IMG/VR virus record: IMGVR_UViG_3300029441_000005
Span: 1-64,000 of that record
From: a virus
Strand: one strand, 5' to 3'
Length of the DNA: 64,000 bases
This document shows positions 7,597 to 64,000 of this stretch, one piece after another (within the stretch, counting starts at the first letter, position 1; every line of letters starts with the position of its first letter). A model generated the notes under the pieces. It was given only the letters and a program-made list of their open reading frames with translations. It had not been told where the DNA came from and searched no databases. The translations under genes were made by a program, and so were the position numbers.

Positions 7597-7823
7597 AATC
7601 TTTTTCCGGCATACTTATTCCGGATTCTCTTTTCGAATGATTTACCTACTGATTCTCCATTTTGGATATCCTCTTTGAACATCCTGAAGTCGAACTCTGA
7701 TACCGAGTTGTATTGGTATACCTTTTCTCCTTTGAAGGTAATGGTGATATCTCGGGTTTCATCATCCATCACTACCTTCATAATTCGGGATGACCCCGTA
7801 ATTTCAAATGTCTTTTTCATCAT
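7593..7823 (-). CDS. KTSC-domain protein
   Basis: The stretch SSRIMKVVMDDETRDITITFKGEKVYQYNSVSEFDF...GKSFEKRIRNKY matches the KTSC pattern (S-x-I-x-x-V-x-Y-D...L-x-V-x-F-x-x-G-x-x-Y-x-Y). Confidence 0.5.
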   Translation of the reverse strand: MMKKTFEITGSSRIMKVVMDDETRDITITFKGEKVYQYNSVSEFDFRMFKEDIQNGESVGKSFEKRIRNKYAGKRL

Positions 7824-8281
7824 TACTGTCTTTTAAGCTCAAAAGTGTTAAGTCCCATAGCTACCACATTATTTTCTTTCCTGAGTGCTTGACAGGTAAA
7901 GAAAATATCCCAGAGAGTGAAGACAGAATCAGAACTCATTTCCATCAAGTCCTCTTCCATCATATAGAGTGTACTCATTATGGTATTAAACCACCTGTTA
8001 TTTAACCCCTTTACCAGCATGGTTTCAATATCTTCATACCTATTGTTAAAGGTATCTCCCTGAACCCTTTGAAAGGCAGCTATATATTCCCTGGCCATGG
8101 ATTCCACCGCTTCTAGAGAAGTCCCGTAGCAGGGGAATATAATTTTCCATTTATCTAAGCTCTTATCCTCTAAAAGGGATTCCAGCGCCTGAATATGCAC
8201 ATCCATAATCTGATTCCATATTTCCTGGGCAGATAATCGCCTTTGCAATTTCAGTTTGATACAACCTCGGTTTATTTTCAT
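7823..8281 (-). CDS. hypothetical protein
   Basis: 152-aa ORF. Confidence 0.55.
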   Translation of the reverse strand: MKINRGCIKLKLQRRLSAQEIWNQIMDVHIQALESLLEDKSLDKWKIIFPCYGTSLEAVESMAREYIAAFQRVQGDTFNNRYEDIETMLVKGLNNRWFNTIMSTLYMMEEDLMEMSSDSVFTLWDIFFTCQALRKENNVVAMGLNTFELKRQ

Positions 8282-8282
8282 T

Positions 8283-8459
8283 TTAATCCTCGTTATAGAT
8301 ATACAGAATTTGATGGTTCCTATCTAACTCCTTTTCCAAATACTCCCAATGAGTATTGTGGTCTATATGGATATTGACCCTATAATCATCCATTTCTTTG
8401 GGTAATAAATCCAGATAATCTTTCAGATCCTTTACAGTAGTGAATTTTGGTTGTCCCAT
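8283..8459 (-). CDS. hypothetical small protein (below the ORF-track cutoff)
   Basis: 58 codons, MGQPKFTTVKDLKDYLDLLPKEMDDYRVNIHIDHNTHWEYLEKELDRNHQILYIYNED. Its ATG lies 20 nt after promoter P6 and its stop lies 1 nt before the next ATG. Confidence 0.5.
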   Translation of the reverse strand: MGQPKFTTVKDLKDYLDLLPKEMDDYRVNIHIDHNTHWEYLEKELDRNHQILYIYNED

Positions 8460-8479
8460 ACTTATTTTATTTCGTTATG

Positions 8480-8511
8480 CAAATATAATAATTATTATTA
8501 TAATATGCAAA
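8480..8511 (-). promoter_or_regulatory. Bacteroidota-type promoter, early class P6
   Basis: The minus strand reads TTTGCAtattataataataattatTATATTTGcataacg, with a 20-nt spacer. Confidence 0.6.
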
Positions 8512-8544
8512 TCAATTTCAGTGGTGTTGTATAGGTTAGTTCAA

Positions 8545-8577
8545 CAAAGAACCCCGAATCTATATTAGGTTCGGGGT
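8545..8577 (-). terminator. rho-independent terminator
   Basis: 8-bp stem accccgaa/ttcggggt (8551-8577), followed on the minus strand by TCTTTGTT. It lies after the stop of ORF 8608-9150. Confidence 0.55.
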
Positions 8578-8607
8578 AAGAGGTTTCATAAACGATTGCC
8601 TATCGGG

Positions 8608-9150
8608 TTAATCCTCCTCTTTCTTTGTCTTCTTTTTCTTCTTGTCCTTGCCTTCTTTCGAAGGTTTGTCGGCCTTCTTTTCCTTGGCCGACTCTTCTTT
8701 CTTGGGAGCAGCCGCCGGAGCACCTGATGCCAACTCTGCAGCATACTTCTTGCCCTCGGCCTCGGCCTTCTCTTTGGACATGGTCTTCAGAAGAGTACGC
8801 ATCTTCTGACGGTACTTTTTCTTCTGGTCGGAGGTCATCTCCTTGCCGTCCACGGTAGGATAGTCGTAGGCATTTGGGGTACTGGTAACCTTTTCCTTCT
8901 TGGGATGGGCTTCTGGCTTCTGATTCTTTTTAGCCTTCTCTACGGCCTTCTCCTCCGTAGCTGCCCTGGCCTTTTTGTTTCCCAGGTTGATGATGTCTAC
9001 CCAAGCTTGGATTTTCTTTCCATGCTTCTTATGGCCTGTCCAATCTTTCTTGGGGTCGAGATCATTCTCTTCCATGTAGGCCAGCATTTCCTTCTGAGCC
9101 CTGCGTGCTTTCTTTGCGGCCAGGTCTTTCTTGCTGATGTCTTTTGCCAT
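8608..9150 (-). CDS. Lys-rich low-complexity protein
   Basis: 180 aa, GC-richer than its surroundings. Contains the motif YDYP...SDQKKKYRQKMR and a KKKKKTKKEED tail. Confidence 0.6.
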   Translation of the reverse strand: MAKDISKKDLAAKKARRAQKEMLAYMEENDLDPKKDWTGHKKHGKKIQAWVDIINLGNKKARAATEEKAVEKAKKNQKPEAHPKKEKVTSTPNAYDYPTVDGKEMTSDQKKKYRQKMRTLLKTMSKEKAEAEGKKYAAELASGAPAAAPKKEESAKEKKADKPSKEGKDKKKKKTKKEED

Positions 9151-22011: not shown

Positions 22012-22458
22012 TTACTGTTGTTTACGTAAGTTTGCTGATATCGTTCTTAATATATTCTCTCTTGATTCATAAGCTTTACATATACTTATCATCTTACTCG
22101 CATTGTACTCAGCCTTCATATATCTTTTCAATGCTCCTTGATAAGCTTGGTTGTTCTCTGCTTTGTGTGCTGCAGCATCATTATTGATATTACCCGATTC
22201 TTTGTAGTAAAGCCATGCCTTGCTATATGCTTGGTCCTTTGCCTTTTCAAGTTTATCCCTTTTATATATAAGCCTATCCCTTACCATCACCAATAGAGCA
22301 TAATTAGATGGACTTCTACGTAAAGACTGATTGACCAGGTTCTCGTCAATCATGAGTTCCTGGTCTAAATCAATCTCATAGGTTTTCCCTTGAAATAGAA
22401 TCTTTAGTGTGTTTTTCTTAATCTGGGATAGACGTACTATCTTTTGCCTTTTTTCCAT
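22012..22458 (-). CDS. possible UvsY-like recombination mediator
   Basis: 148 aa, helical. Its size, position and loose pattern (LYYKE...; C-terminal ISICKAYESRENILRTISANLR) recall T4 UvsY. The evidence is weak. Confidence 0.3.
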   Translation of the reverse strand: MEKRQKIVRLSQIKKNTLKILFQGKTYEIDLDQELMIDENLVNQSLRRSPSNYALLVMVRDRLIYKRDKLEKAKDQAYSKAWLYYKESGNINNDAAAHKAENNQAYQGALKRYMKAEYNASKMISICKAYESRENILRTISANLRKQQ

Positions 22459-22931
22459 ATAACACCTCTTTCACTGAAGTATTTATACATGGTCATAATG
22501 CTTATTCCATATTTGACCTTTATCTGTAGGTTACTCATACCACTCTCATAATCTTCTATCATCTTATTTATAGACTCCTCACTCAACTTAGGGCTTGGTA
22601 TATTAAATCTACCGTCTCTTATACATTGTTGAGTATTCTCTTGGTTAGTACACCAATATAGATTTTCTACTTTATTATTTTCTCGATTATTATCCTTATG
22701 ACCCACACACGGTTTATTATCTGGGTTTGGAATGTAGATTAAAGCTACCAACCTATGTATATTAAACGTATACTTAATCCCCTTATTATTTCTTAGGCTT
22801 ACTATCAAGTAACCATTGTTCTTCTTTCTCTTAGCCATTTTCCTCCAAGTAACTCTATCTCTATACTTAGAGTACACATTACCTTCTCGAGTAACATGGT
22901 AACAATCAAAATCTGGTATATTACCTTTCAT
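22437..22931 (-). CDS. HNH homing endonuclease
   Basis: NGYLIVSL...HRLVALIYIPNPDNKPCVGHKDNNRENNKVENLYWCTNQEN is a typical HNH_3/NUMOD-type core. The C-terminus is HTH-like. Confidence 0.8.
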   Translation of the reverse strand: MKGNIPDFDCYHVTREGNVYSKYRDRVTWRKMAKRKKNNGYLIVSLRNNKGIKYTFNIHRLVALIYIPNPDNKPCVGHKDNNRENNKVENLYWCTNQENTQQCIRDGRFNIPSPKLSEESINKMIEDYESGMSNLQIKVKYGISIMTMYKYFSERGVIWKKGKR

Positions 22932-25215
22932 ACATTCTCTTCCTAAACTCTCTCTTATTTTTCTCTATCTCTTCTGGATATAACTTAGGATAATCTTCTA
23001 TTTCAATACCTTTGAACTTACGATGTTCCTCTAAGTACTCATCAGGATTAAAATCTGGTTCAAGCATTTTCCTATAATCATATCCAGGAATAAAAGGTAG
23101 TTCCTCTGCCATAGAACGCCCGATAACGAAGTCCATTGACATACTTACGTCGTCTATCTGGAAGTTGAAGTATTCTTTAGTATTTGGGTTACGGCAAGTT
23201 TCCCAAATCTCGTATACTACCCAGGTATTTATATATTCGGGACTTACCAAGTAATAGGTAGCATCATGAACATTACAAGTCTCTTGCATAAATGGTAACT
23301 TACCTTGCCTCATTTTCCAATAGTTTAGGATTGAAGCGAATAAGTTCATATCAGATGCAGCTGATTGACAAGGCATATTAACTGATAATCTTACTGCGTA
23401 TGCAGCTTCTTGCTCATTATCAGAATATACTTGAGGTAACCTTCTTTTCCTGCCAAACAAAGATTTAATATATCCATGTCTTACCAACACTTTCTCCTGG
23501 TTAATCATGAACTTCTTAATCTTTGGATGCTCTTGGAAGAACTCATTCAACTGTTGTTGAGCTTCGTCAGGGGTTACGATAATACCTGCTTTTGGGTCAG
23601 ATAGTTTAACTGCAAGCAGTTTCTTCTGAATACCGTAGATAATACCGAAACATATCTGCTTTGCCTGCTTCCTTCGATTTTTCCAAAGCTTATAATCTGG
23701 ATGTTGTTCATCGCTGTAAGCTTTGTTTGCTTCCTCGTATGATACACCATACTTGTTTGCTGCAATAGCAAGGTGAGGGTCCTGACCCTTAGCAAATGCC
23801 TCAAGATAAGTCTCATCTCCCGATAGGTGTGCCATGATTCTTAACTCTGCCTGAGAGTAGTCAAGTGCCATGTATAATTTCCCCTTTGGAGCTACTAACT
23901 GTTTCTTAATATTAGCATCTACTGAAGTCTTTGGTATCTGCTGAAGATTTGGTTCAGAACTACTTAGTCGGCCAGAAGTAGTACCAATAATTTTGAATTG
24001 CCCGTGAATTCTATCATCATCCTGAACTTTATCATGCCATCCCTCAATATAGGTTGTATACATTTTCTTTAACCCTCTCAACTCGAGAAGATTATCCAGG
24101 AAAATTGCTTTGGGATTTTCGGGATTTTTAACCGTTAGTCGAAGTTCTACCAATGTATCTTCATCGGTACTCGGCTTATCAGTATCACGATTAGTTTTCT
24201 TATCCTTGGTATATTTTATGATAGGGAATTTGAACCCCTTTTCAGAATACAACAGTAGAGGTAAATCAATTGTACTTCCCAAGTTTACTTCTCGGGTTAA
24301 TTCCAATTCTTTTTTAGTGGTGAATACACCAGCTCGTATATTGGATATTTTTTGCTCCCTGCTTGCTATTTTCCGTGCGTCCTTTGGGTTATGATAATCC
24401 AGGTCTTCAAGTTCACTTTCAATAGATGCAAGGTACTTGCTTATTCTTTCTTGAACAAGCCATCTAGAGAATTTTTTCACTCGTGGAAGATTCAAGCAAT
24501 TAGAAGTTGCTTGTTCAATCTTTGGCTTGTAAGATTCAAGCAGTTCCTGATTGAATTTCCTATCGAGGTATAATCCGGTTTTTTCAGCATGCTGCAATAC
24601 CCTAGAAGCTGGCATAATCAAATGCCTAAACAAGGGGTACATGCCAATCTCTATTAGCTTACTTTCAAAGAACATAGCTAACCTAAGAGTATAATCGGTA
24701 TCCTGACAACCATACTTGCATAATGGTTCCAAGGGTTTCTTATCCCAAGGTATCTTGTCAAACTTCTCTGCCTTCTCGTAATCGCCATGCTCTGGTAGAT
24801 ACCTTCTAACCATTGACTTCAGGTCATTGGGTTTCTCTTCATTTAGAAGATACTTCATAAGCATTCCATCCAGAACAGTACCTCTAACATATATCCCATA
24901 CAACTCGAATATCTGAAGGTCAAACTTCAGATTCCATCCCACTTTAGTTATATTGGGATTCTCAACCACCTTTCTACCAAAATACTTTAACCAACGTTTC
25001 CAATGAGGGTTTTCATATTCGTGGTGACATAATGGAATAGATACACCAGAACCAACTTGAAAGGTTACAGATAAAATTGTGGGTTTGAAGGTTTTATTAT
25101 AAATACCTTCTGCATTTGTCTCGAAGTCGACGGAAGCTATGCCGGTTTTCAAACAAGCTTTCACAAGCCGCTTGACTTGTGAGAAACTTTTGATTATGTC
25201 ATATCTTGACTCCAT
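22921..25215 (-). CDS. family A DNA polymerase with 3'-5' exonuclease domain
   Basis: ExoI VDFET, motif A LDYSQAELRIMAH, motif B RRKQAKQICFGIIYG and motif C NVHDA. Confidence 0.9.
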   Translation of the reverse strand: MESRYDIIKSFSQVKRLVKACLKTGIASVDFETNAEGIYNKTFKPTILSVTFQVGSGVSIPLCHHEYENPHWKRWLKYFGRKVVENPNITKVGWNLKFDLQIFELYGIYVRGTVLDGMLMKYLLNEEKPNDLKSMVRRYLPEHGDYEKAEKFDKIPWDKKPLEPLCKYGCQDTDYTLRLAMFFESKLIEIGMYPLFRHLIMPASRVLQHAEKTGLYLDRKFNQELLESYKPKIEQATSNCLNLPRVKKFSRWLVQERISKYLASIESELEDLDYHNPKDARKIASREQKISNIRAGVFTTKKELELTREVNLGSTIDLPLLLYSEKGFKFPIIKYTKDKKTNRDTDKPSTDEDTLVELRLTVKNPENPKAIFLDNLLELRGLKKMYTTYIEGWHDKVQDDDRIHGQFKIIGTTSGRLSSSEPNLQQIPKTSVDANIKKQLVAPKGKLYMALDYSQAELRIMAHLSGDETYLEAFAKGQDPHLAIAANKYGVSYEEANKAYSDEQHPDYKLWKNRRKQAKQICFGIIYGIQKKLLAVKLSDPKAGIIVTPDEAQQQLNEFFQEHPKIKKFMINQEKVLVRHGYIKSLFGRKRRLPQVYSDNEQEAAYAVRLSVNMPCQSAASDMNLFASILNYWKMRQGKLPFMQETCNVHDATYYLVSPEYINTWVVYEIWETCRNPNTKEYFNFQIDDVSMSMDFVIGRSMAEELPFIPGYDYRKMLEPDFNPDEYLEEHRKFKGIEIEDYPKLYPEEIEKNKREFRKRMYER

Positions 25216-25462: not shown

Positions 25463-25480
25463 AAGAATTATAAAATCATG

Positions 25481-25563
25481 TACTCGGAGCGGGAATCGAA
25501 CCCGCAAGGTCAATGACCGTCAGAGCTTAAATCTGATGAGTTTACCTATTTCTCCATCCGAGC
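25481..25563 (-). tRNA. tRNA-Leu (anticodon UAA), type II with long variable arm
   Basis: The minus strand reads GCTCGGA-TG-...-TCAGA-TTTAAGC-TCTGA-CGGTCATTGACCTTG-GCGGG-TTCGATT-CCCGC-TCCGAGT-A. No CCA is encoded. Confidence 0.85.
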
Positions 25564-25569
25564 AATAAA

Positions 25570-25593
25570 AATGAGGAGTTATCAGTACTCCTC
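25570..25593 (-). terminator. hairpin plus T-run inside the tRNA cluster
   Basis: 7-bp stem gaggagt/actcctc with a 7-nt loop, followed on the minus strand by ATTTTTATT. It lies immediately 5' of tRNA-Leu. Confidence 0.4.
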
Positions 25594-25774
25594 TAAACTG
25601 GCCGCTGACAAGATATTACCTCTAGAAAGATATCTCACCATTACAGTATCAATTAAGCATCTTATACTTTATACTTATTTAGGTGTTTTTCCTAAAGGGA
25701 GATACTTACCTTTAGTAATATGATTGATCAGTTCATATTCTCACCCAAATATACCATCTGCTTTTCAATGGTAG

Positions 25775-25849
25775 TACGGAAGACAGGATTCGAACCTGCG
25801 ACCCCTTGCTCCCAAAGCAAGTACACTAACCGGACTGTGCTACTTCCGT
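25775..25849 (-). tRNA. tRNA-Pro (anticodon UGG)
   Basis: The minus strand reads ACGGAAG-TA-GCAC-AGTCCGGTTA-GTGT-A-CTTGC-TTTGGGA-GCAAG-GGGTC-GCAGG-TTCGAAT-CCTGT-CTTCCGT-A. Confidence 0.85.
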
Positions 25850-25938
25850 AAATTAGGTACCAGTCTATATCCCTACCGTCCAGTACCTGGGAATGAATCA
25901 GGACTCGTTGTCCACAGCGCAAAATAAAGATTCATTAG

Positions 25939-26012
<74 letters not shown>

Positions 26013-26090: not shown

Positions 26091-26864
26091 TTACCTTAAT
26101 TCGGTCTGGATAGAAGTTTTGAGTTTTACCCAGTCCTTTTTATAACTATGCAAACTATCAATAGTATGATAGAGATAACCAGGTTTGGTACCCACTTCTC
26201 TAGCTACGTATTCCATTAGTTTCCATGCCAAGTATACATCATTTCCAAAGTGAGTTACAAAATCTGATGATCTTTGGTGATAGCAAATATTTAATTGCTT
26301 TTCACCTCGGGCATTCTCCCGTATTAGGAAGTCGTAGTACATTGAACATGGGATGCGCATCTTACCATCCAGGCTTTCAGCATCTGAATATTCTACCTGC
26401 CCATCTTCACCATAGATATTAAGTATGGCTTTACGAGTATCGTTATCATCCTTGAGCAGACCTATAACAGCCTGTAACTTGGTCATTACAATCCCATTAT
26501 ACCTTACTACCTCATTCATTCTCTCTGAATAAGTATAGTCGAAGTACCTACCATTTACAAGAAACTCCCCCCATATTTCAGGACGTAATTTCCAAGCTTC
26601 TCCTGGGTTAATTTGTCCCGGATGGATCCTTTCCTGGAACTCGGCATCTGCCCAATCTTTGGATTGGGTGAATACAAATAGGGGAGCCGGGTCTTCCATG
26701 TGAGTTAAACAGTACTGTTCACATATCAATTCTTTAGTAATAAAGTCATCTTTGCCTTCGATAACTTTATTCTGATAGGTACGGGGTTTTACCTCATTAC
26801 CCATCTCACAAAGATTACGAGCTGTTTCTGACATTAACTCATACGGGTTCGAATATATTCTCAT
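26091..26864 (-). CDS. ThyA-superfamily pyrimidine C5-transferase, dCMP hydroxymethylase-like
   Basis: DTRKAILNIY (compare T4 gp42 DSRRGIMIY), catalytic-Cys motif IPCSMYYDFLIRE, YHQRSSDFVTHFGNDVYLAW (compare gp42 MRSNDVVFGFRNDYAW) and SLHSY (compare SLHVY). The specificity position is Asp, as in gp42, not Asn as in ThyA. Confidence 0.7.
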   Translation of the reverse strand: MRIYSNPYELMSETARNLCEMGNEVKPRTYQNKVIEGKDDFITKELICEQYCLTHMEDPAPLFVFTQSKDWADAEFQERIHPGQINPGEAWKLRPEIWGEFLVNGRYFDYTYSERMNEVVRYNGIVMTKLQAVIGLLKDDNDTRKAILNIYGEDGQVEYSDAESLDGKMRIPCSMYYDFLIRENARGEKQLNICYHQRSSDFVTHFGNDVYLAWKLMEYVAREVGTKPGYLYHTIDSLHSYKKDWVKLKTSIQTELR

Positions 26865-27061
26865 TGTTCGTGATTTTTAATATATTTTCTTATAGATTTT
26901 CGTAGTTCTTTTAGGTCCTGAATATTCATGTTGGGAAGACCTACCCAATAATTAACATTGGTACATACATATAACTCTATGTCCCTGCCATTCCTATCAG
27001 GATATTTACCCTTGAATATCTTTACTCCAAAATAGGGTTTATCTTTCCTCTCGTACTTCAC
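26861..27061 (-). CDS. hypothetical small protein
   Basis: 66-aa ORF whose C-terminus NMNIQDLKELRKSIRKYIKN is shared with the next small ORF. Confidence 0.45.
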   Translation of the reverse strand: MKYERKDKPYFGVKIFKGKYPDRNGRDIELYVCTNVNYWVGLPNMNIQDLKELRKSIRKYIKNHEQ

Positions 27062-27218
27062 TTAGATACCTCCTTATCTTTCTTTTAAGTTGCCTTAAAT
27101 CCTTTACACTGATATTGGCCACGGTATTGAATAACCACCCATCATCCGTGGAGAAAGTTATATCTATATCTCCTCCGAGTTTACTGGTGTAAGGAGATTT
27201 CTTTACCTCTATTTTCAT
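27039..27218 (-). CDS. hypothetical small protein (below the ORF-track cutoff), paralogue of 26861-27061
   Basis: 59 codons, MKIEVKKSPYTSKLGGDIDITFSTDDGWLFNTVANISVKDLRQLKRKIRRYLSEVREER. It fills the gap between annotated ORFs. Confidence 0.4.
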   Translation of the reverse strand: MKIEVKKSPYTSKLGGDIDITFSTDDGWLFNTVANISVKDLRQLKRKIRRYLSEVREER

Positions 27219-27254
27219 TGCATTGGTATTTGCAATTCAATAGACTTCCCTATA

Positions 27255-28043
27255 TTAGAATGGTAGCCAGTCTTCACTACCGAGTGTACAATCCTTTGCC
27301 AGTGTTTTGGGATATTTGAATAATTCTGGTCTGAGTACTTTCAATGCTCTTTTATGTACCTTATACTTTATCTTGTCAGGGTCTACTTTAAGTAGATACT
27401 TCAACCTATCATACCAATTACCATCATATATACCAAGCTTATCACTAAGCTTTAATAGGTCTTCATGAGCATGATACATTAGTAATACAGTATCATCGTT
27501 GAATATCTGACTGAAGTGTATTGATACATGGAATTTCTGTCCGATAGGGAATAAGTATTCCCCTATCCTTTGAATCAGTAATAGGTCACAGATAAGTCTT
27601 TTGGTTACCTCTGATGCCCTCATGAATACCGTTATCATAGGGTAATCCATACCTGCTTTCTTTGATACAGTTAGAGACAACAAGCAATTCTTGCCATGAG
27701 CATGCTTATTATCAAACTGATAGCCTATGTTGAATATCTTCCTTGAGTTTAAGGCTTTTACTACTTCCTGCCTTAAATCAATTATACCGTTTTCATTCAC
27801 ATAATTTGCTACCAAAGACTTCCACTTAGCTGAAGTGTAATTGAAATGCCTGCCGAAATCGAATTCAGGATCTACCAGAGGTTCTTTAATATAGATGACT
27901 AAATCATTTAAGTATTGTGCTTTACCAATTCTTTCAATATCCAAACCGGGAGTATTGAAAAGGAATAATCTGTTAAGTCCCTCCCAAGCTTTCATACTTG
28001 TTTTGAACTTCAACAGGTTATTCTTTAACTTAAACTTACTCAT
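27255..28043 (-). CDS. unknown enzyme-like protein, paralogue A (remote ThyA-like motif order)
   Basis: Shares these motifs with 28036-29025: AWE, DPEFDFGxxFxYTxxKWxxLxxNY, IGYxFxxxHxxGKxCL, ITVxxRxSExxxRLxxDxLL and NDxTxLLxY. Confidence 0.6.
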   Translation of the reverse strand: MSKFKLKNNLLKFKTSMKAWEGLNRLFLFNTPGLDIERIGKAQYLNDLVIYIKEPLVDPEFDFGRHFNYTSAKWKSLVANYVNENGIIDLRQEVVKALNSRKIFNIGYQFDNKHAHGKNCLLSLTVSKKAGMDYPMITVFMRASEVTKRLICDLLLIQRIGEYLFPIGQKFHVSIHFSQIFNDDTVLLMYHAHEDLLKLSDKLGIYDGNWYDRLKYLLKVDPDKIKYKVHKRALKVLRPELFKYPKTLAKDCTLGSEDWLPF

Positions 28044-29025
28044 CTGTTTCAGGAGTTAATTCACTGTCATCCATATCGTCTTCTTCTGAAGAGGAGAATG
28101 ATATCAACTTCTTCCTTTTCTTCTCCCCACTTTCCTCTAGCTTTAGTTTGAGACCATACTTTTCGGTGAACTTTAAGTAGGTCTTTTTTATCATGTTACG
28201 CTTGAGGATAGAGGGACATACCTCGGGCAATGGGATACCATCCCAATCTCCAATTTCTAAGGCTGAGGCTAACATAGATTTCTGTTTATACCCCAAATCT
28301 TTCCTTAATACCTTGAAAGCTCTGAAACTGTTACCATAGGTTTTATAACCTGCTTCATCGCTTGTCATAAGTTTTTTGAGAGATTTACGTATCTTCTTTC
28401 TACGTACTTCATCGGTACAGTTCTCTTTCAATAACTCCTTAATATCTTTTCGATTCTGATACAGCAAGATTGTAGTATCATTTGCCCAAGCTGCTTTGAT
28501 AACCAACTTTAGAGAGAAGTTATCATGGCCATAAATATACTGACCCATACGGCAGAATAGTAGCATATCTATGGGCAACCTTGTAACTATCTCTGAAGAT
28601 CGGAGTATTACTGTTATATCAGGATTTTCAACTCCTATCTTACGAGAGAATATACCGCCCACCAAGCATCCCTTACCACTGCCATGATTATCAGCAAAAT
28701 GGAATCCAATGTGATAATTCCTGTTTACTGTCTTGTTCTCTTCTAACTTCCTTATCATCAGTTTGGCCTGATCAAGTACATCCAAATCCAAGTAGTTGGT
28801 AATTAAACCAGTCCACTTAGTCATGGTGTACCCAAACATCTTACCGAAGTCAAAGTCAGGGTTAAATTTAGCCTCAGCTATTTCTACCATCAAGTCGTAT
28901 GTAAAAAGAGAATCGGTTAAGTTATAACCAATTCCTTCACAAAACCAGTCGGGTTTCTTGATTAAGAAATTTTCCAGTATCTTTTCCCAAGCTTCTATTG
29001 GGTTCTTAGCTTTTACCAAATTCAT
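28036..29025 (-). CDS. unknown enzyme-like protein, paralogue B, with acidic Ser-rich tail
   Basis: The start was moved to ATG 29025 (MNLVKAKNPIEAWEKI...), adjacent to the stop of the upstream gene. The motifs are the same as in paralogue A. Confidence 0.6.
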   Translation of the reverse strand: MNLVKAKNPIEAWEKILENFLIKKPDWFCEGIGYNLTDSLFTYDLMVEIAEAKFNPDFDFGKMFGYTMTKWTGLITNYLDLDVLDQAKLMIRKLEENKTVNRNYHIGFHFADNHGSGKGCLVGGIFSRKIGVENPDITVILRSSEIVTRLPIDMLLFCRMGQYIYGHDNFSLKLVIKAAWANDTTILLYQNRKDIKELLKENCTDEVRRKKIRKSLKKLMTSDEAGYKTYGNSFRAFKVLRKDLGYKQKSMLASALEIGDWDGIPLPEVCPSILKRNMIKKTYLKFTEKYGLKLKLEESGEKKRKKLISFSSSEEDDMDDSELTPETDE

Positions 29026-29026
29026 A

Positions 29027-29938
29027 CTAATACTTCGATTTTTGACGGAACATATTGATACGGTTCTTCTTGAAATAGATGTAGAATACATCATCTGAAC
29101 CCATACCTATCCATCCCAAATACCCACAGAAGTAGATGAAGGCCTTCACTAATTCCGACTGATACTTTAACTCCTGAGTCATTACCTGGGATTGCTTCCA
29201 GGGTTTATTCTTCAGGAAGTTACGAGCAATGTTCAGATGATGGGTTATCTTCCATAACAGATATGGGTAGTTTACTAAGTACTCTACATAATTGAAGTAT
29301 CTACCTCCCTCGAGTAACTTTGTGTTATAGTCCAGATGTGTTTCTGAATCCATGTTCTCGTACCACTTGATAAGGTCTGTGGCATTGTTGTGTAAGATAA
29401 CACTGATATCTCCCTTGACCATTATCCACATTACCCCGAGATTCATTGCTGTACGCAGAATATCATCGTGGTTCTTGTTTAGAGAATCTACCACTGATTG
29501 AGTACAATGGTTGTCCTTTACCCACTTCTCCATATATGTCATTATATCCTCTGGTTGGATATTGGCATATATAAGCAGTTCTATAAAGAAGTGGATTGCA
29601 TCGGCGTTCTCTTCGTTAGCATTCTGCAGATTATTGAGTATCTCTGTATACTCTATGCAATCTCCTTGGGTTTGTACCAACTTGGCATGATTGGCTTCGA
29701 ATAAAGCCATAACATTTTCGAAAGATTCATATCCTTCGGATAACTCCTCAATAACCCGGGCAGTAAAGTCCTTCAATAGTGTTTGAGAAGCCTTTGTATT
29801 GATGTCTACCGGATACTGTGGTAGCCCCTCTATGCCTATATACCCAGACAAGAGGTTCTTTTGCATTTGATATATCTCTTCTAGATACTTATGGTCGGGA
29901 ATTATACCCGGTTCTTCTTTTATATCGCGACTATCCAT
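29027..29938 (-). CDS. all-alpha NTP pyrophosphohydrolase (dimeric dUTPase/dCTPase or MazG-like)
   Basis: The start was moved to ATG 29938 (MDSRDIKEE...). The motifs ARVIEELSEGYE and ENADAIHFFIELLIY resemble the E-x-x-E / E-x-x-D metal-binding helices of the dimeric dUTPase-dCTPase family. Confidence 0.5.
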   Translation of the reverse strand: MDSRDIKEEPGIIPDHKYLEEIYQMQKNLLSGYIGIEGLPQYPVDINTKASQTLLKDFTARVIEELSEGYESFENVMALFEANHAKLVQTQGDCIEYTEILNNLQNANEENADAIHFFIELLIYANIQPEDIMTYMEKWVKDNHCTQSVVDSLNKNHDDILRTAMNLGVMWIMVKGDISVILHNNATDLIKWYENMDSETHLDYNTKLLEGGRYFNYVEYLVNYPYLLWKITHHLNIARNFLKNKPWKQSQVMTQELKYQSELVKAFIYFCGYLGWIGMGSDDVFYIYFKKNRINMFRQKSKY

Positions 29939-29942
29939 GGTC

Positions 29943-30518
29943 TTACTTGTTATCGTGTGCTCCGAATCCTTTGTCTCCTCTTGTACCCCAGTTCTTTGCC
30001 TTCTCTTCGTACTCTTCATTGGTAATCTCTACCGGAGTTGAAAGTATGATGGGAACGTGTACGAATTGCATTATTTTCTTACCTTGGTTCAGAGGAATAC
30101 AAACCTCTTCGGGTGAACCGTTATGAATACCTATGTGCATTTCCCCAGTATAAGGGCTATCCACTATCTCGGCAGTGAACGACAAACCCTCTTTAGTTGC
30201 AATCCCAGATTTATTTGCTGCCATGAGCATGGACTCTTTTGGATTGATAAGTACCTTTATACCAGAAGGGATGAGAAGTCTTCCACCTGGCTTAATTACC
30301 ACATGTACATCATCAGTACCCAACCCATTTAGTTTGATGTAACCTTTACCTAACATCTTCCGATTGATACCGGAAAAGTCATCCTTACCTTTCTCCCCAA
30401 CCTTAAGAATATCTTGGTCGGATAACTGAGGAATGTAGAAATCAAGCCCTGCATCCCCCTCATTTGCTCGGTTAGGGGATTTAACCTCTCGAATCTTTGT
30501 GAACTCTAATTGTACCAT
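29943..30518 (-). CDS. dut: trimeric dUTPase-fold enzyme
   Basis: Motif 1 GDAGLD, motif 2 NKSGIA, motif 3 IVDSPYTGEM, motif 4 KIMQFV and motif 5 RGDKGFG. There is a large insertion after motif 1. Confidence 0.8.
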   Translation of the reverse strand: MVQLEFTKIREVKSPNRANEGDAGLDFYIPQLSDQDILKVGEKGKDDFSGINRKMLGKGYIKLNGLGTDDVHVVIKPGGRLLIPSGIKVLINPKESMLMAANKSGIATKEGLSFTAEIVDSPYTGEMHIGIHNGSPEEVCIPLNQGKKIMQFVHVPIILSTPVEITNEEYEEKAKNWGTRGDKGFGAHDNK

Positions 30519-30519
30519 G

Positions 30520-30921
30520 TTATTTACTGTTGAATTTACGATAAATGTCTCTTGCTTCCTTTCGGGATAACTCGAACTTACTCTGAAGCTTATCGAGTAT
30601 TTCCTTCTTACCCAGTTTTTCTCTTACCAATTTACGGTAGTACTTTTTACAACCTTCTATATCTACCAAAGGTTCCAAATCCTTGAACTGGGTTTCTGCT
30701 TCCAGCTCTTTACGAGTCTTACCCATAAGAGCTGTGAACTTAATACAACAGAGTTCGGAATCTCCGCACATCTTACATTCCTTGGTTGAAAGGTCATAGT
30801 GTTTACCGAAACATGGATCTTGTCCTGAACCAAGTTTGGTGATGTCTATAGGTTCAAGAATATCCCCAGTCTCTAACTCCTTTCTTACTTCCTTAAGTTT
30901 GTCTTTCTTTTTCTTCGCCAT
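30520..30921 (-). CDS. Cys-rich hypothetical protein
   Basis: 133 aa with a CFGKHYDLSTKECKMCGDSELCC cluster. Confidence 0.55.
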   Translation of the reverse strand: MAKKKKDKLKEVRKELETGDILEPIDITKLGSGQDPCFGKHYDLSTKECKMCGDSELCCIKFTALMGKTRKELEAETQFKDLEPLVDIEGCKKYYRKLVREKLGKKEILDKLQSKFELSRKEARDIYRKFNSK

Positions 30922-62533: not shown

Positions 62534-64000
62534 TTATCTTGGTTTACTGTCTTGGTCTTTCCTTTTGGGATTAGGATTTGCTTTATCACGGGTTCTACGG
62601 TCTGACTTATCTTTATCGTCTTCTCGTTTCTTTTTCTTCTGACCGGTATCTGAATCACCCGTACCATCTGAATCATCAGATTCTACAGGAGTTCTTGGTT
62701 CTGGTTGGTCTGGGGTTTCATAGCCCATATCCCGTGCAAACTGGTCCTGACTTATTATACCCTGATTGTACAAGGTTACATTTACCCGAGCACGGTATTC
62801 ACGAGCTTGTTGTAACTTGATATCGTCTGAAACAGTTGAAGTTCCAAACTTGATAGTGATTCCCTTGTTGTTAAACCCAGCCAGGCGCAGTTCTAGAGAA
62901 TAAAAGAACTCCAGTACAAAGATTACCAACGTTTGGATATTCTTTAACTGGGATATCATCTTAGACAGCTGTATACCAGCTCCACCTTCAGTACCACTCT
63001 GTGATGCAGATACTCCGATAATAGAACCATTTACTCCCAAGCCGTTTGCCACAGATTGTTGATTCATATTCCAGGGAAGGTTTATATTCTGCATGGAAGC
63101 TGAAGTAGACCTTAGTTCGAATTCGTGGTCATCAATGTAACCAACCACTACTCCATCAGACATACCTCCAACAATATTGGTCTTCATCTTCCTTAGAGTA
63201 CTTTCCAAACGAGCAGCATAGGCTTTTTCACTCTCTCCAGCAGTACGTGGAGGTTTAGCCATCTTAGCTTCAAGGAAACCAACCATACCCATTACCTCCA
63301 TGATATGTTTGAAATTCTTTCTCATGGTATGCTGACCAGCTATAGAATCCAAAGCAGACATAAATGGAGGTACCCCGTAGGGTTCATCGGTATCATTGTA
63401 CATACCTACATAACAATAGGTCTCTGTATTCAATCGTATGAATGAATCTTTGAGACCATCTACCAAACGTGGGTTTCTTTGATATGGGTGATATACTCCA
63501 TTGTTCTCTCTCTTAAACCTTATAGTTTCTGGTTTTATGAAGAGTATGGTTTCCAGTCCTGTTAACTTCTTGTTTGGTACTCCTTCTACTGATATAGCAC
63601 CACCAACGAGAAGCTGAACTATGAATTTATTCACTAACCCGTCAATACCAGCCGTATACTTAGACCACTTTTTTGATACATCCCTCAAGTGCTCCCTCAT
63701 CTTGGTAGACTCTTCTGGAGTATTGTTTGGGAAGTCGATAGTATGACCTGTATTCGACAGCTTGAACATGTCCTGCAATGCAATGCTGACGTCCGGGTTT
63801 ATCTTGTACAGGTCCCGAATGATAGGTATTAGTTCTGTTCTGAACGTTGGGGTAACTAAGTTCGTCATACCATTAAGAGTGGTAATGAGTTCAGAGTTCC
63901 CCACACCATCATCTGGTTGAGAAACTCTGCCCGGACTTATTGAACCCTTTCCCTCATCTTTGTTCTGAGATTCCACAGGCTTAGACCTGGTGAACCAACT
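62534..64000 (-). CDS. portal protein (start not resolved)
   Basis: At least 480 aa, directly upstream of the protease/scaffold gene. The first in-window start candidate is GTG 63976, but the frame stays open to the window edge. Confidence 0.65.
   Translation of the reverse strand, partial: SWFTRSKPVESQNKDEGKGSISPGRVSQPDDGVGNSELITTLNGMTNLVTPTFRTELIPIIRDLYKINPDVSIALQDMFKLSNTGHTIDFPNNTPEESTKMREHLRDVSKKWSKYTAGIDGLVNKFIVQLLVGGAISVEGVPNKKLTGLETILFIKPETIRFKRENNGVYHPYQRNPRLVDGLKDSFIRLNTETYCYVGMYNDTDEPYGVPPFMSALDSIAGQHTMRKNFKHIMEVMGMVGFLEAKMAKPPRTAGESEKAYAARLESTLRKMKTNIVGGMSDGVVVGYIDDHEFELRSTSASMQNINLPWNMNQQSVANGLGVNGSIIGVSASQSGTEGGAGIQLSKMISQLKNIQTLVIFVLEFFYSLELRLAGFNNKGITIKFGTSTVSDDIKLQQAREYRARVNVTLYNQGIISQDQFARDMGYETPDQPEPRTPVESDDSDGTGDSDTGQKKKKREDDKDKSDRRTRDKANPNPKRKDQDSKPR

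Follow-up and report, generated by a model that had tools for sequence, protein, structure and literature searches.

We analyzed a 64,000-nucleotide stretch of DNA from an uncultured human-gut phage (positions 1-64,000 of the IMG/VR record IMGVR_UViG_3300029441_000005; hereafter the window), in which five adjacent genes, here designated A to E, had been proposed to form a nucleotide module specifying C5-modified cytosine in the phage DNA. All five open reading frames (ORFs) were present on the minus strand at the positions given in the original prediction (Table 1). Their order was kept in 71 of 79 related IMG/VR loci and was also seen in GenBank relatives, so they are not chance ORFs. Gene A encodes a homologue of thymidylate synthase (ThyA), the products of B and C are ThyA-fold proteins as well, making these the second and third such genes of the module, and D and E encode an all-alpha nucleoside triphosphate (NTP) pyrophosphatase and a trimeric dUTPase.

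The assignment of A to the ThyA superfamily was borne out by matches to Pfam Thymidylat_synt (PF00303; 57.5 bits, cut-off 24.3) and to PHROG 160, "thymidylate synthase" (1.7e-25), and by an AlphaFold (AF2) model with a predicted local distance difference test score (pLDDT) of 87. The best structural match of the model was the cytidine monophosphate (CMP) hydroxymethylase MilA (E 1e-13, template modeling (TM) score 0.70), and its matches to MilA, ThyA and the phage HY126 enzyme AfhB, a 5-hydroxy-deoxycytidine monophosphate (dCMP) synthase, ranged from E 1e-13 to 1e-10. When the sequence of A was searched against the Protein Data Bank (PDB), AfhB came first (1e-6) and MilA third (3e-4), and no match to T4 gp42, the dCMP hydroxymethylase, was detectable. 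We aligned A with T4 gp42 and E. coli ThyA, and the alignment recovered the published T4 residue numbers (E60, C148 and D179), which validates its register. The Asp at the T4 D179 position that had been picked out from the sequence was upheld by this alignment, in which D209 of A stands at E. coli N177, and the catalytic Cys is in place as well. The spacing had been miscounted, since D209 lies 8 and not 9 residues after D201, the retained equivalent of E. coli D169, and this slip leaves the point unaffected. The key residues of A are E45, W98, Y112, R144, R170, C173, R198, S199, D201, D209, H239 and Y241. Of the E. coli ThyA positions, E58, W80, Y94, R126, C146, R166, S167, D169, H207 and Y209 are kept, with C173, E45, Y112, R198, S199, H239 and Y241 of A aligned to C146, E58, Y94, R166, S167, H207 and Y209, respectively, and a Ser is found at the H147 position.

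Published work gives rules by which such residues can be read. Changing N177 to Asp switches the preference of the enzyme from deoxyuridine monophosphate (dUMP) to dCMP (PMC8670742, PMC13326640). An acidic residue at L143 goes with hydroxymethylation, the characterized hydroxymethylases having Asp or Glu there, and D169N is the signature of the flavin-dependent 5-hydroxy-dCMP synthases (PMC13326640). By these rules A reads as a cytosine-specific enzyme, probably folate-dependent because D169 is retained, and as neither a canonical ThyA nor a 5-hydroxylase. Compared with a canonical thymidylate synthase, A has Asp in place of Asn at 177 and is missing both the bulky hydrophobic residue at L143 and the C-terminal lid, as its C-terminus lies 16 residues past the HxY motif (55 in E. 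coli ThyA). A does have the equivalents of gp42 D179, C148 and E60 (D209, C173 and E45), and at the L143 position, where gp42 has Asp (D145), it carries Arg170. This Arg was found in 74 of the 78 A-like genes of the IMG/VR loci and in every distant partner described below, and Asp at the 177 position was found in all A-like partners. We also considered A as a 5-hydroxy-dCMP synthase, since AfhB was its best PDB sequence match, and rejected this on account of the retained D169.

Genes B and C had been recognized in the original prediction as divergent paralogues, and they share 32% identity (E 3e-40). C matched a hidden Markov model (HMM) of the B family at 3e-63 and retains its GKGC...RSSE...D motif, and the predicted start of C at 29025 gave a better alignment fit than the longest ORF, which starts at 29094. 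What had been missed was that both are ThyA-fold proteins with a conserved set of Cys, Arg and Asp. This relationship is visible only by structure prediction with Foldseek and by profile-profile comparison with a broadened alignment. B and C had no Pfam or NCBIfam match, and in PHROG the family is listed as 34294, "unknown function". B, C and the B-family profile matched nothing meaningful among PDB sequences, and of 55 family members compared with Pfam none matched PF00303 at E <= 0.1 and none had a match of any kind below E 0.0097. The sole direct sequence link between the B family and ThyA was a match of about 1e-3 between the B-family HMM and the A-like protein of the Clostridium perfringens phage CPAS-15.

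An AF2 model of B, built on 38 homologues, had a pLDDT of 89.5, and all 12 of its Foldseek matches in the PDB with E <= 0.001 belonged to the ThyA superfamily. The top matches were the dCMP hydroxylase AfhB (7e-7), MilA (1e-6) and the T4 dCMP hydroxymethylase (2e-4), and matches in BFVD outside the family of B itself were ThyA or gp42. The third-best BFVD match was A0A2I6PI74, an uncharacterized protein of the cultured Pseudomonas phage PMBT14 (TM 0.64, 18% identity), which ranked above annotated ThyA and gp42 proteins. Comparison of a 55-member B-family profile with the A/ThyA profile using hhalign gave E 4e-4, superseding an earlier comparison with a narrow alignment that was weak and placed the Cys two residues out of register. 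In the 55-member comparison Cys120, Arg142, Glu145 and Asp153 of B correspond to C146, R166, D169 and N177 of E. coli ThyA, and C120, R142 and D153 fall on C173, R198 and D209 of A. Cys120, Arg142 and Asp153, as well as Lys73 and Tyr81, were invariant in the 55 diverse members, down to 18% identity, and B and C probably still use covalent catalysis on an amino-pyrimidine. At the folate-contacting D169 position B and C have a different residue, Glu (in one actinophage B-like protein, Huwbert gp65, the residue there appears by eye to be Tyr), and they have no recognizable R126/R127 pair. The B family is small: 1.84 billion representative proteins yielded about 245 clusters at 50% identity (E <= 0.001). 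The A family comprises 1408 clusters at 90% identity. We regard the B family, an unannotated third branch of ThyA without a Pfam model, as the real novelty of the module. Several B-family proteins from unrelated phages have strongly acidic C-terminal tails resembling the protein-interaction tails of single-stranded DNA-binding proteins (SSBs) and gp32-type replication proteins: C (28036-28100) ends in ...SSSEEDDMDDSELTPETDE, Huwbert gp65 in ...EEEEDDDE and the B-like protein of the freshwater myovirus MW202455 in ...DDEGDDE.

The strongest argument that these genes form a module comes from comparing sequences across lineages. We examined the window and MT121964, an uncultured phage from human feces in GenBank, together with the distant gut and metagenomic relatives L007/L008, L009 and L010, C. 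perfringens phages of the CPAS-15/CPD4 group, MW202455, Microbacterium phage Huwbert, Gordonia phage Emalyn and Streptomyces phage KimJongPhill. In every one of these lineages a B-like gene adjoins an A-like gene with the Arg143/Asp169/Asp177 signature, which reads R-[IV]-P-C and RS.D.......D in the protein. The pairing was also found in 78 of the 79 IMG/VR loci, the lone exception being a truncated contig; most of these loci are close relatives, so that it is the five distant lineages and not this count that supply independent evidence. A Bacteroides phage with a T4-type Asp143 hydroxymethylase had no B-like gene. The usual order of the cassette is kinase, MazG or all-alpha pyrophosphatase, B-like gene, A-like gene, dCMP deaminase and PolA. 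Huwbert additionally encodes a textbook ThyA (gp68) with L143 and N177, and MW202455 additionally encodes ThyX, indicating that the Asp177 enzyme is not the thymidylate synthase of these phages and that the pair is not used for dTMP synthesis.

In public records, A-like genes are labeled plainly as thymidylate synthase, and the B-like gene of MW202455 is annotated "pyrimidine hmase synthase". The annotation of CPAS15_0021 (L002:6208-6957) as the "colanic acid biosynthesis glycosyltransferase WcaC" was unsupported; this protein matched the B-family HMM at E 6e-76 and B itself by BLASTP at 8e-11. Literature searches on MT121964, AfhB, the PDB codes, C. perfringens phages, Flandersviridae and actinophage modules turned up no description of the B family and no account of the DNA chemistry of these phages.

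D had been described as an all-alpha NTP pyrophosphatase resembling a dCTPase, and this description held. D matched Pfam dUTPase_2 (PF08761; 31.3 bits, cut-off 22.9) and PHROG 12184/173 (NTP pyrophosphohydrolase), and its C-terminal 70 residues are related to the T4 dCTPase/dUTPase gp56 (BLASTP E 3e-6). It is also homologous to the NTP pyrophosphatases at the same cassette position in CPAS-15 (1e-13) and Emalyn (gp49, MazG; 1e-8). Because E is already a dUTPase, D would be free to act on dCTP, and it is on this ground that we consider D a candidate dCTPase. The identification of E was likewise confirmed, by matches to PF00692 (36.4 bits, cut-off 22; 5e-9), PHROG 135 dUTPase (5e-20) and NCBIfam dut (2e-16). 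The last of these scored 59.8 bits, below the equivalog cut-off of 103, so E is a divergent member of the trimeric dUTPases. It shows the five dUTPase motifs (DAGLDF, NKSG, IVDSPYTGE, KIMQ and RGDKGFG) and has an ortholog at the same place in L010 (46% identity). We rejected E as a dCTP deaminase, since that family matched at 4e-3 against 2e-16 for dut and the C-terminal RG..GFG motif is present.

A further gene that may belong to the pathway encodes a P-loop kinase, which matched PHROG 2107, "thymidylate kinase" (8e-9); its Pfam matches to P-loop and cytidylate-kinase-like families were weak. The kinase has orthologues in L008 and L009. In other lineages a kinase gene directly adjoins the NTP pyrophosphatase gene, and no orthology between the window kinase and these cassette kinases could be demonstrated past the P-loop. 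As the original prediction had noted, no glycosyltransferase was recognized, and our scan of the 53 larger ORFs against Pfam found none. No TobZ-like carbamoyltransferase was found in the window.

Table 1. Features of the module and its surroundings. Positions are those of the window unless another record is named.
Feature	Position	Strand	Remarks
Gene A, ThyA-superfamily enzyme, 257 amino acids (aa)	26091..26864	minus	predicted dCMP C5-transferase, hydroxymethylase type
Gene B, divergent ThyA-fold protein, 262 aa	27255..28043	minus	AF2/Foldseek and profile alignment
Gene C, divergent ThyA-fold protein, 329 aa, acidic C-terminal tail	28036..29025	minus	paralogue of B
Gene D, all-alpha NTP pyrophosphatase, 303 aa	29027..29938	minus	candidate dCTPase; Pfam, PHROG, gp56 homology
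Gene E, trimeric dUTPase, 191 aa, insertion of about 40 aa	29943..30518	minus	Pfam, PHROG, NCBIfam
P-loop kinase, 220 aa	18013..18675	minus	candidate deoxynucleoside monophosphate (dNMP) kinase for the modified nucleotide; PHROG 2107
Small ORF s1, 59 aa	27039..27218	minus	inside module, between B and A
Small ORF s2, 66 aa	26861..27061	minus	inside module, between B and A
Cys-rich small protein, 133 aa (DPCFGK...ECKMCGD)	30520..30921	minus	immediately upstream of module
Three tRNA genes, Leu(TAA), Pro(TGG), Met(CAT)	25480-26012	minus	between polymerase and gene A
Family A DNA polymerase	22921..25215	minus	presumed consumer of the modified dNTP
C5 DNA methyltransferase	L005:4682-5677 (MT121964); also L132, L151 (IMG/VR)		outside the window

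The window is a single phage genome segment with nearly all genes on the minus strand. Its right half carries the structural and lysis genes of a myovirus (sheath, baseplate J, baseplate spike, tape measure, capsid and amidase), and its left-centre is a T4-like replication and recombination cluster. This cluster includes a DnaB-like helicase, a primase, a superfamily 2 (SF2) helicase, the family A polymerase, an HNH endonuclease and a GroES-like protein, as well as a gp32-like SSB, UvsX/RecA, a 5'-3' exonuclease, the P-loop kinase, Mre11/Rad50-like proteins and a PD-(D/E)XK nuclease. MT121964 is syntenic with the entire window at about 80% nucleotide identity, the 78.6-kb contig IMGVR_UViG_3300045988_073327 is 97% identical to the window across the 12.8 kb compared, and other IMG/VR contigs related to it are up to about 79 kb long.

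Between B and A lie the small ORFs s1 and s2, which are paralogous to each other (E 4e-8) and had no family match in Pfam or PHROG. The B-like gene and the small ORF following it are both duplicated in this gut clade, and the s1/s2 and B/C pairs suggest a tandem duplication of a unit made up of a B-like gene and a small ORF. In Huwbert, Emalyn and MW202455, too, the B-like gene has small hypothetical ORFs on its flanks. The Cys-rich protein upstream of the module has homologues of 127-131 aa at the same position in L007, L009 and L010, and had no significant match in Pfam or PHROG scans. A listed ORF at 25728-25922 is probably spurious, as it reads across the three tRNA genes. The gene 3' of the cassette matched Pfam DNA_pol_A in L007-L010 and is annotated PolA or PolI in CPAS-15, Huwbert, Emalyn and KimJongPhill; in MW202455 the gene at this position is annotated merely as "DNA polymerase". 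An HNH-type endonuclease ORF (22437-22931, minus strand) directly follows the PolA gene of the window, MT121964 has about 1 kb of additional sequence inside its PolA region (L001, about 7696-8741), and in L010 (9852-13484) the PolA gene is interrupted by a DUF559-like endonuclease ORF. These three observations suggest that mobile endonucleases or introns come and go in the polymerase gene of the clade.

Taking these genes together, we favor, with rather more confidence than doubt, a reading of the module as a pre-replicative pathway whose product, a C5-modified deoxycytidine nucleotide, supplies the family A polymerase of the phage. The T4-like logic of a dCTPase combined with a dCMP C5-transferase, as originally proposed, is a fair reading, and the separate thymidylate synthases of Huwbert and MW202455 reinforce it. 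D would hydrolyze dCTP to dCMP, removing normal dCTP and supplying the substrate, and E would keep dUTP out of the DNA, allowing D to specialize. In A, Cys173 would attack C6 of dCMP, Asp209 would read the N3/N4 face of the cytosine, and a one-carbon unit would be transferred from methylene-tetrahydrofolate, for which the folate-binding Asp201 is retained. Hydride transfer requires a hydrophobic L143 and the C-terminal lid, and as A has neither, its product is more likely of the hydroxymethyl type than methyl.

B and C would then act as obligate partners of the A-type enzyme. They retain the nucleophilic Cys, the Arg that would bind phosphate and the Asp that would read cytosine, appear to have lost recognizable folate-binding features, and may run a second C5 reaction on dCMP or on the product of A, possibly as a B/C heterodimer. 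We speculate that, starting from 5-hydroxymethyl-dCMP, they could regenerate the exocyclic methylene intermediate and have a different nucleophile capture it. The P-loop kinase, possibly, and the host nucleoside diphosphate (NDP) kinase would raise the product to the triphosphate, which the phage PolA would incorporate. It is a more tentative proposal, and one we hold at distinctly lower confidence than the pathway as such, that an Arg143/Asp177 ThyA homologue and a B-like protein constitute an undescribed two-enzyme system whose product is a C5-substituted deoxycytidylate other than the methyl, hydroxymethyl or hydroxy forms. It is equally tentative that such a system is common to abundant human-gut phages, C. 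perfringens phages and actinobacteriophages.

Several observations weigh against this reading or restrict it. The Arg143 of A fits no characterized class, so that by residue comparison its product is not readable from the known rules; with Arg170 in place of the Asp or Glu of the hydroxymethylases, 5-hydroxymethylcytosine (5-hmC) is just one candidate product. B and C lack a recognizable R126/R127 pair and so may act on something other than a 5'-monophosphate. Support for the kinase assignment is weak and comes mainly from similarity of the P-loop. Moreover, the phages of the clade conserve a C5 DNA cytosine methyltransferase (PF00145, 6e-18), which occurs in 58 IMG/VR loci. One of these is on the contig that shares 97% identity with the window over 12.8 kb, and by synteny the gene would lie about 2.4 kb past the right end of the window (position 64000). 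Such an enzyme needs an unmodified C5 and would have no substrate if every C were already C5-substituted.

Several restriction-type sites were also strongly avoided. Relative to counts expected from a maximal-order Markov model over the whole window (1-64000), GATC occurred 31 times against 241 expected, an about eightfold avoidance, ATGCAT 0 times against 14, CATATG once against 13.6 and CAATTG 3 times against 10.6, suggesting that the DNA is still under restriction pressure at C-containing sites. The observed/expected ratio of CpG in the window was 0.59. The methyltransferase and the site avoidance sit badly with a complete, protective replacement of dC, and the T-even pattern of complete replacement was not reproduced here, there being no glycosyltransferase among the scanned ORFs and a C5 DNA methyltransferase in the clade. 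Three readings fit: the modification is partial, it is small and tolerated by many nucleases, or it serves some other purpose. The earlier interpretation is thus partly supported. A cytosine C5-modification module remains the best reading of the locus, and 5-hmC as in T4 is not established for this phage, given the Arg at L143.

The alternative that survives best, though we consider it unlikely, is that A acts as a dCMP methylase of the kind proposed in Xanthomonas phage XP12, that the DNA contains plain 5-methylcytosine (5mC), and that B and C are accessory or inactive. Asp at N177 alone turns ThyA into a dCMP methylase (literature summarized in PMC8670742), the retained D169 makes folate use likely, and the methyltransferase of the clade shows that 5mC is evidently tolerated or useful. 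However, A has Arg rather than a bulky hydrophobic residue at L143, it is without the C-terminal segment with which ThyA shuts its active site to allow hydride transfer, and the structure nearest to it is that of a hydroxymethylase. A methylase would also leave unexplained the constant presence beside it of a second family whose catalytic residues are conserved.

We give slightly less weight to the possibility that the module only manages nucleotide pools, with A, B and C, or some of them, being unusual thymidylate synthases or dUMP-directed enzymes and D and E sanitizing the pool. In that case the virion DNA would be canonical except for ordinary site-specific methylation. A largely canonical DNA would fit both the site avoidance and the conserved C5 DNA methyltransferase, and the public annotation of A-like genes as thymidylate synthase agrees with it. 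It is contradicted by the presence of Asp and not Asn at position 177 in A and all its A-like counterparts, by an Asp at the aligned position in 55 of 55 B-family members, and by the canonical ThyA of Huwbert and the ThyX of MW202455 alongside the pair.

Another, improbable alternative is that the module yields a modified uracil or thymine analogue in the end and not a cytosine, either because C5-modified dCMP is then deaminated or because B and C act on a uracil nucleotide. The case for it is the dCMP deaminase in or beside the cassette of L007/L008, L009, Huwbert, Emalyn and KimJongPhill and the deaminase motif in the MW202455 locus. Yet no dCMP deaminase motif was found anywhere in the 64-kb window or in the examined stretches of CPAS-15 (14.7 kb) and L010 (16.9 kb), and T4 encodes a dCMP deaminase while modifying only cytosine. 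Least probable is that A, B and C act on ribonucleotides or make a small molecule, without DNA modification, in the manner of MilA, the closest solved structure to A; the genes sit in the replication cluster beside PolA in every lineage, amid deoxynucleotide-directed enzymes (dUTPase, gp56-like pyrophosphatase and dCMP deaminase), and A keeps two residues, H239 and Y241, whose ThyA counterparts touch the 3'-OH, though neither discriminates at the 2' position.

The routes to nearly all hypermodified pyrimidines known from phage DNA start with a ThyA-family enzyme, and the characterization of each further branch, hydroxymethylases and flavin-dependent hydroxylases among them, has brought a new base. 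The final base of this phage may therefore be new as well. Because the pair occurs in common gut phages and in cultured Clostridium, Microbacterium, Gordonia and Streptomyces phages, isolates on which the question can be tested directly are already at hand. A novel derivative of cytosine, if there is one, would affect restriction and clustered regularly interspaced short palindromic repeats (CRISPR) evasion, sequencing bias in the gut virome and ThyA-fold enzymology.

Among known systems, the dC-replacement pathway of T4 consists of the gp56 dCTPase/dUTPase, the gp42 dCMP hydroxymethylase, the gp1 dNMP kinase and alpha- and beta-glucosyltransferases. The module resembles it in that D is homologous to gp56, A shares the Glu, Cys and Asp of gp42 (E60, C148 and D179), a P-loop kinase candidate is present, and the genes lie among gp32-like, UvsX-like and gp46/47-like replication and recombination genes. 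It differs from T4 in having Arg where gp42 has Asp145, two additional ThyA-fold genes (B and C), a separate trimeric dUTPase (E) and no glycosyltransferase among the scanned ORFs. The DNA methyltransferase of the clade is also of the C5 type, whereas the T4 stretch examined has an adenine-N6 Dam annotated. MilA, the CMP 5-hydroxymethylase of mildiomycin biosynthesis (PDB 5jnh, 5b6d), has Asp at the N177 position as A does; it differs from A in its Asp at L143 (PMC13326640), in a length greater by about 60 residues, and in using a ribonucleotide as substrate, as part of an antibiotic pathway. The flavin-dependent 5-hydroxy-dCMP synthases, represented by AfhB of phage HY126 (PDB 9iqu/9iqc), RB69 gp48 and DLP3 gp80, are phage ThyA homologues with Asp at N177 that carry out non-folate chemistry at C5 of dCMP. 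The D169N of AfhB and RB69 gp48 is seen neither in A (Asp201) nor in B and C (Glu), and the arabinosyl or glycosyl transferases that accompany AfhB-type systems were not found here. In the virome systems with a 5-hydroxymethylcytosine carbamoyltransferase found by MetaGPA (eLife 2021), an Asp177 ThyA homologue occurs with an all-alpha pyrophosphohydrolase and a dCMP deaminase on contigs of phages with modified DNA. There the tailoring is done by a TobZ-like carbamoyltransferase, whereas in the module described here the partner of the Asp177 enzyme is itself a ThyA-fold protein.

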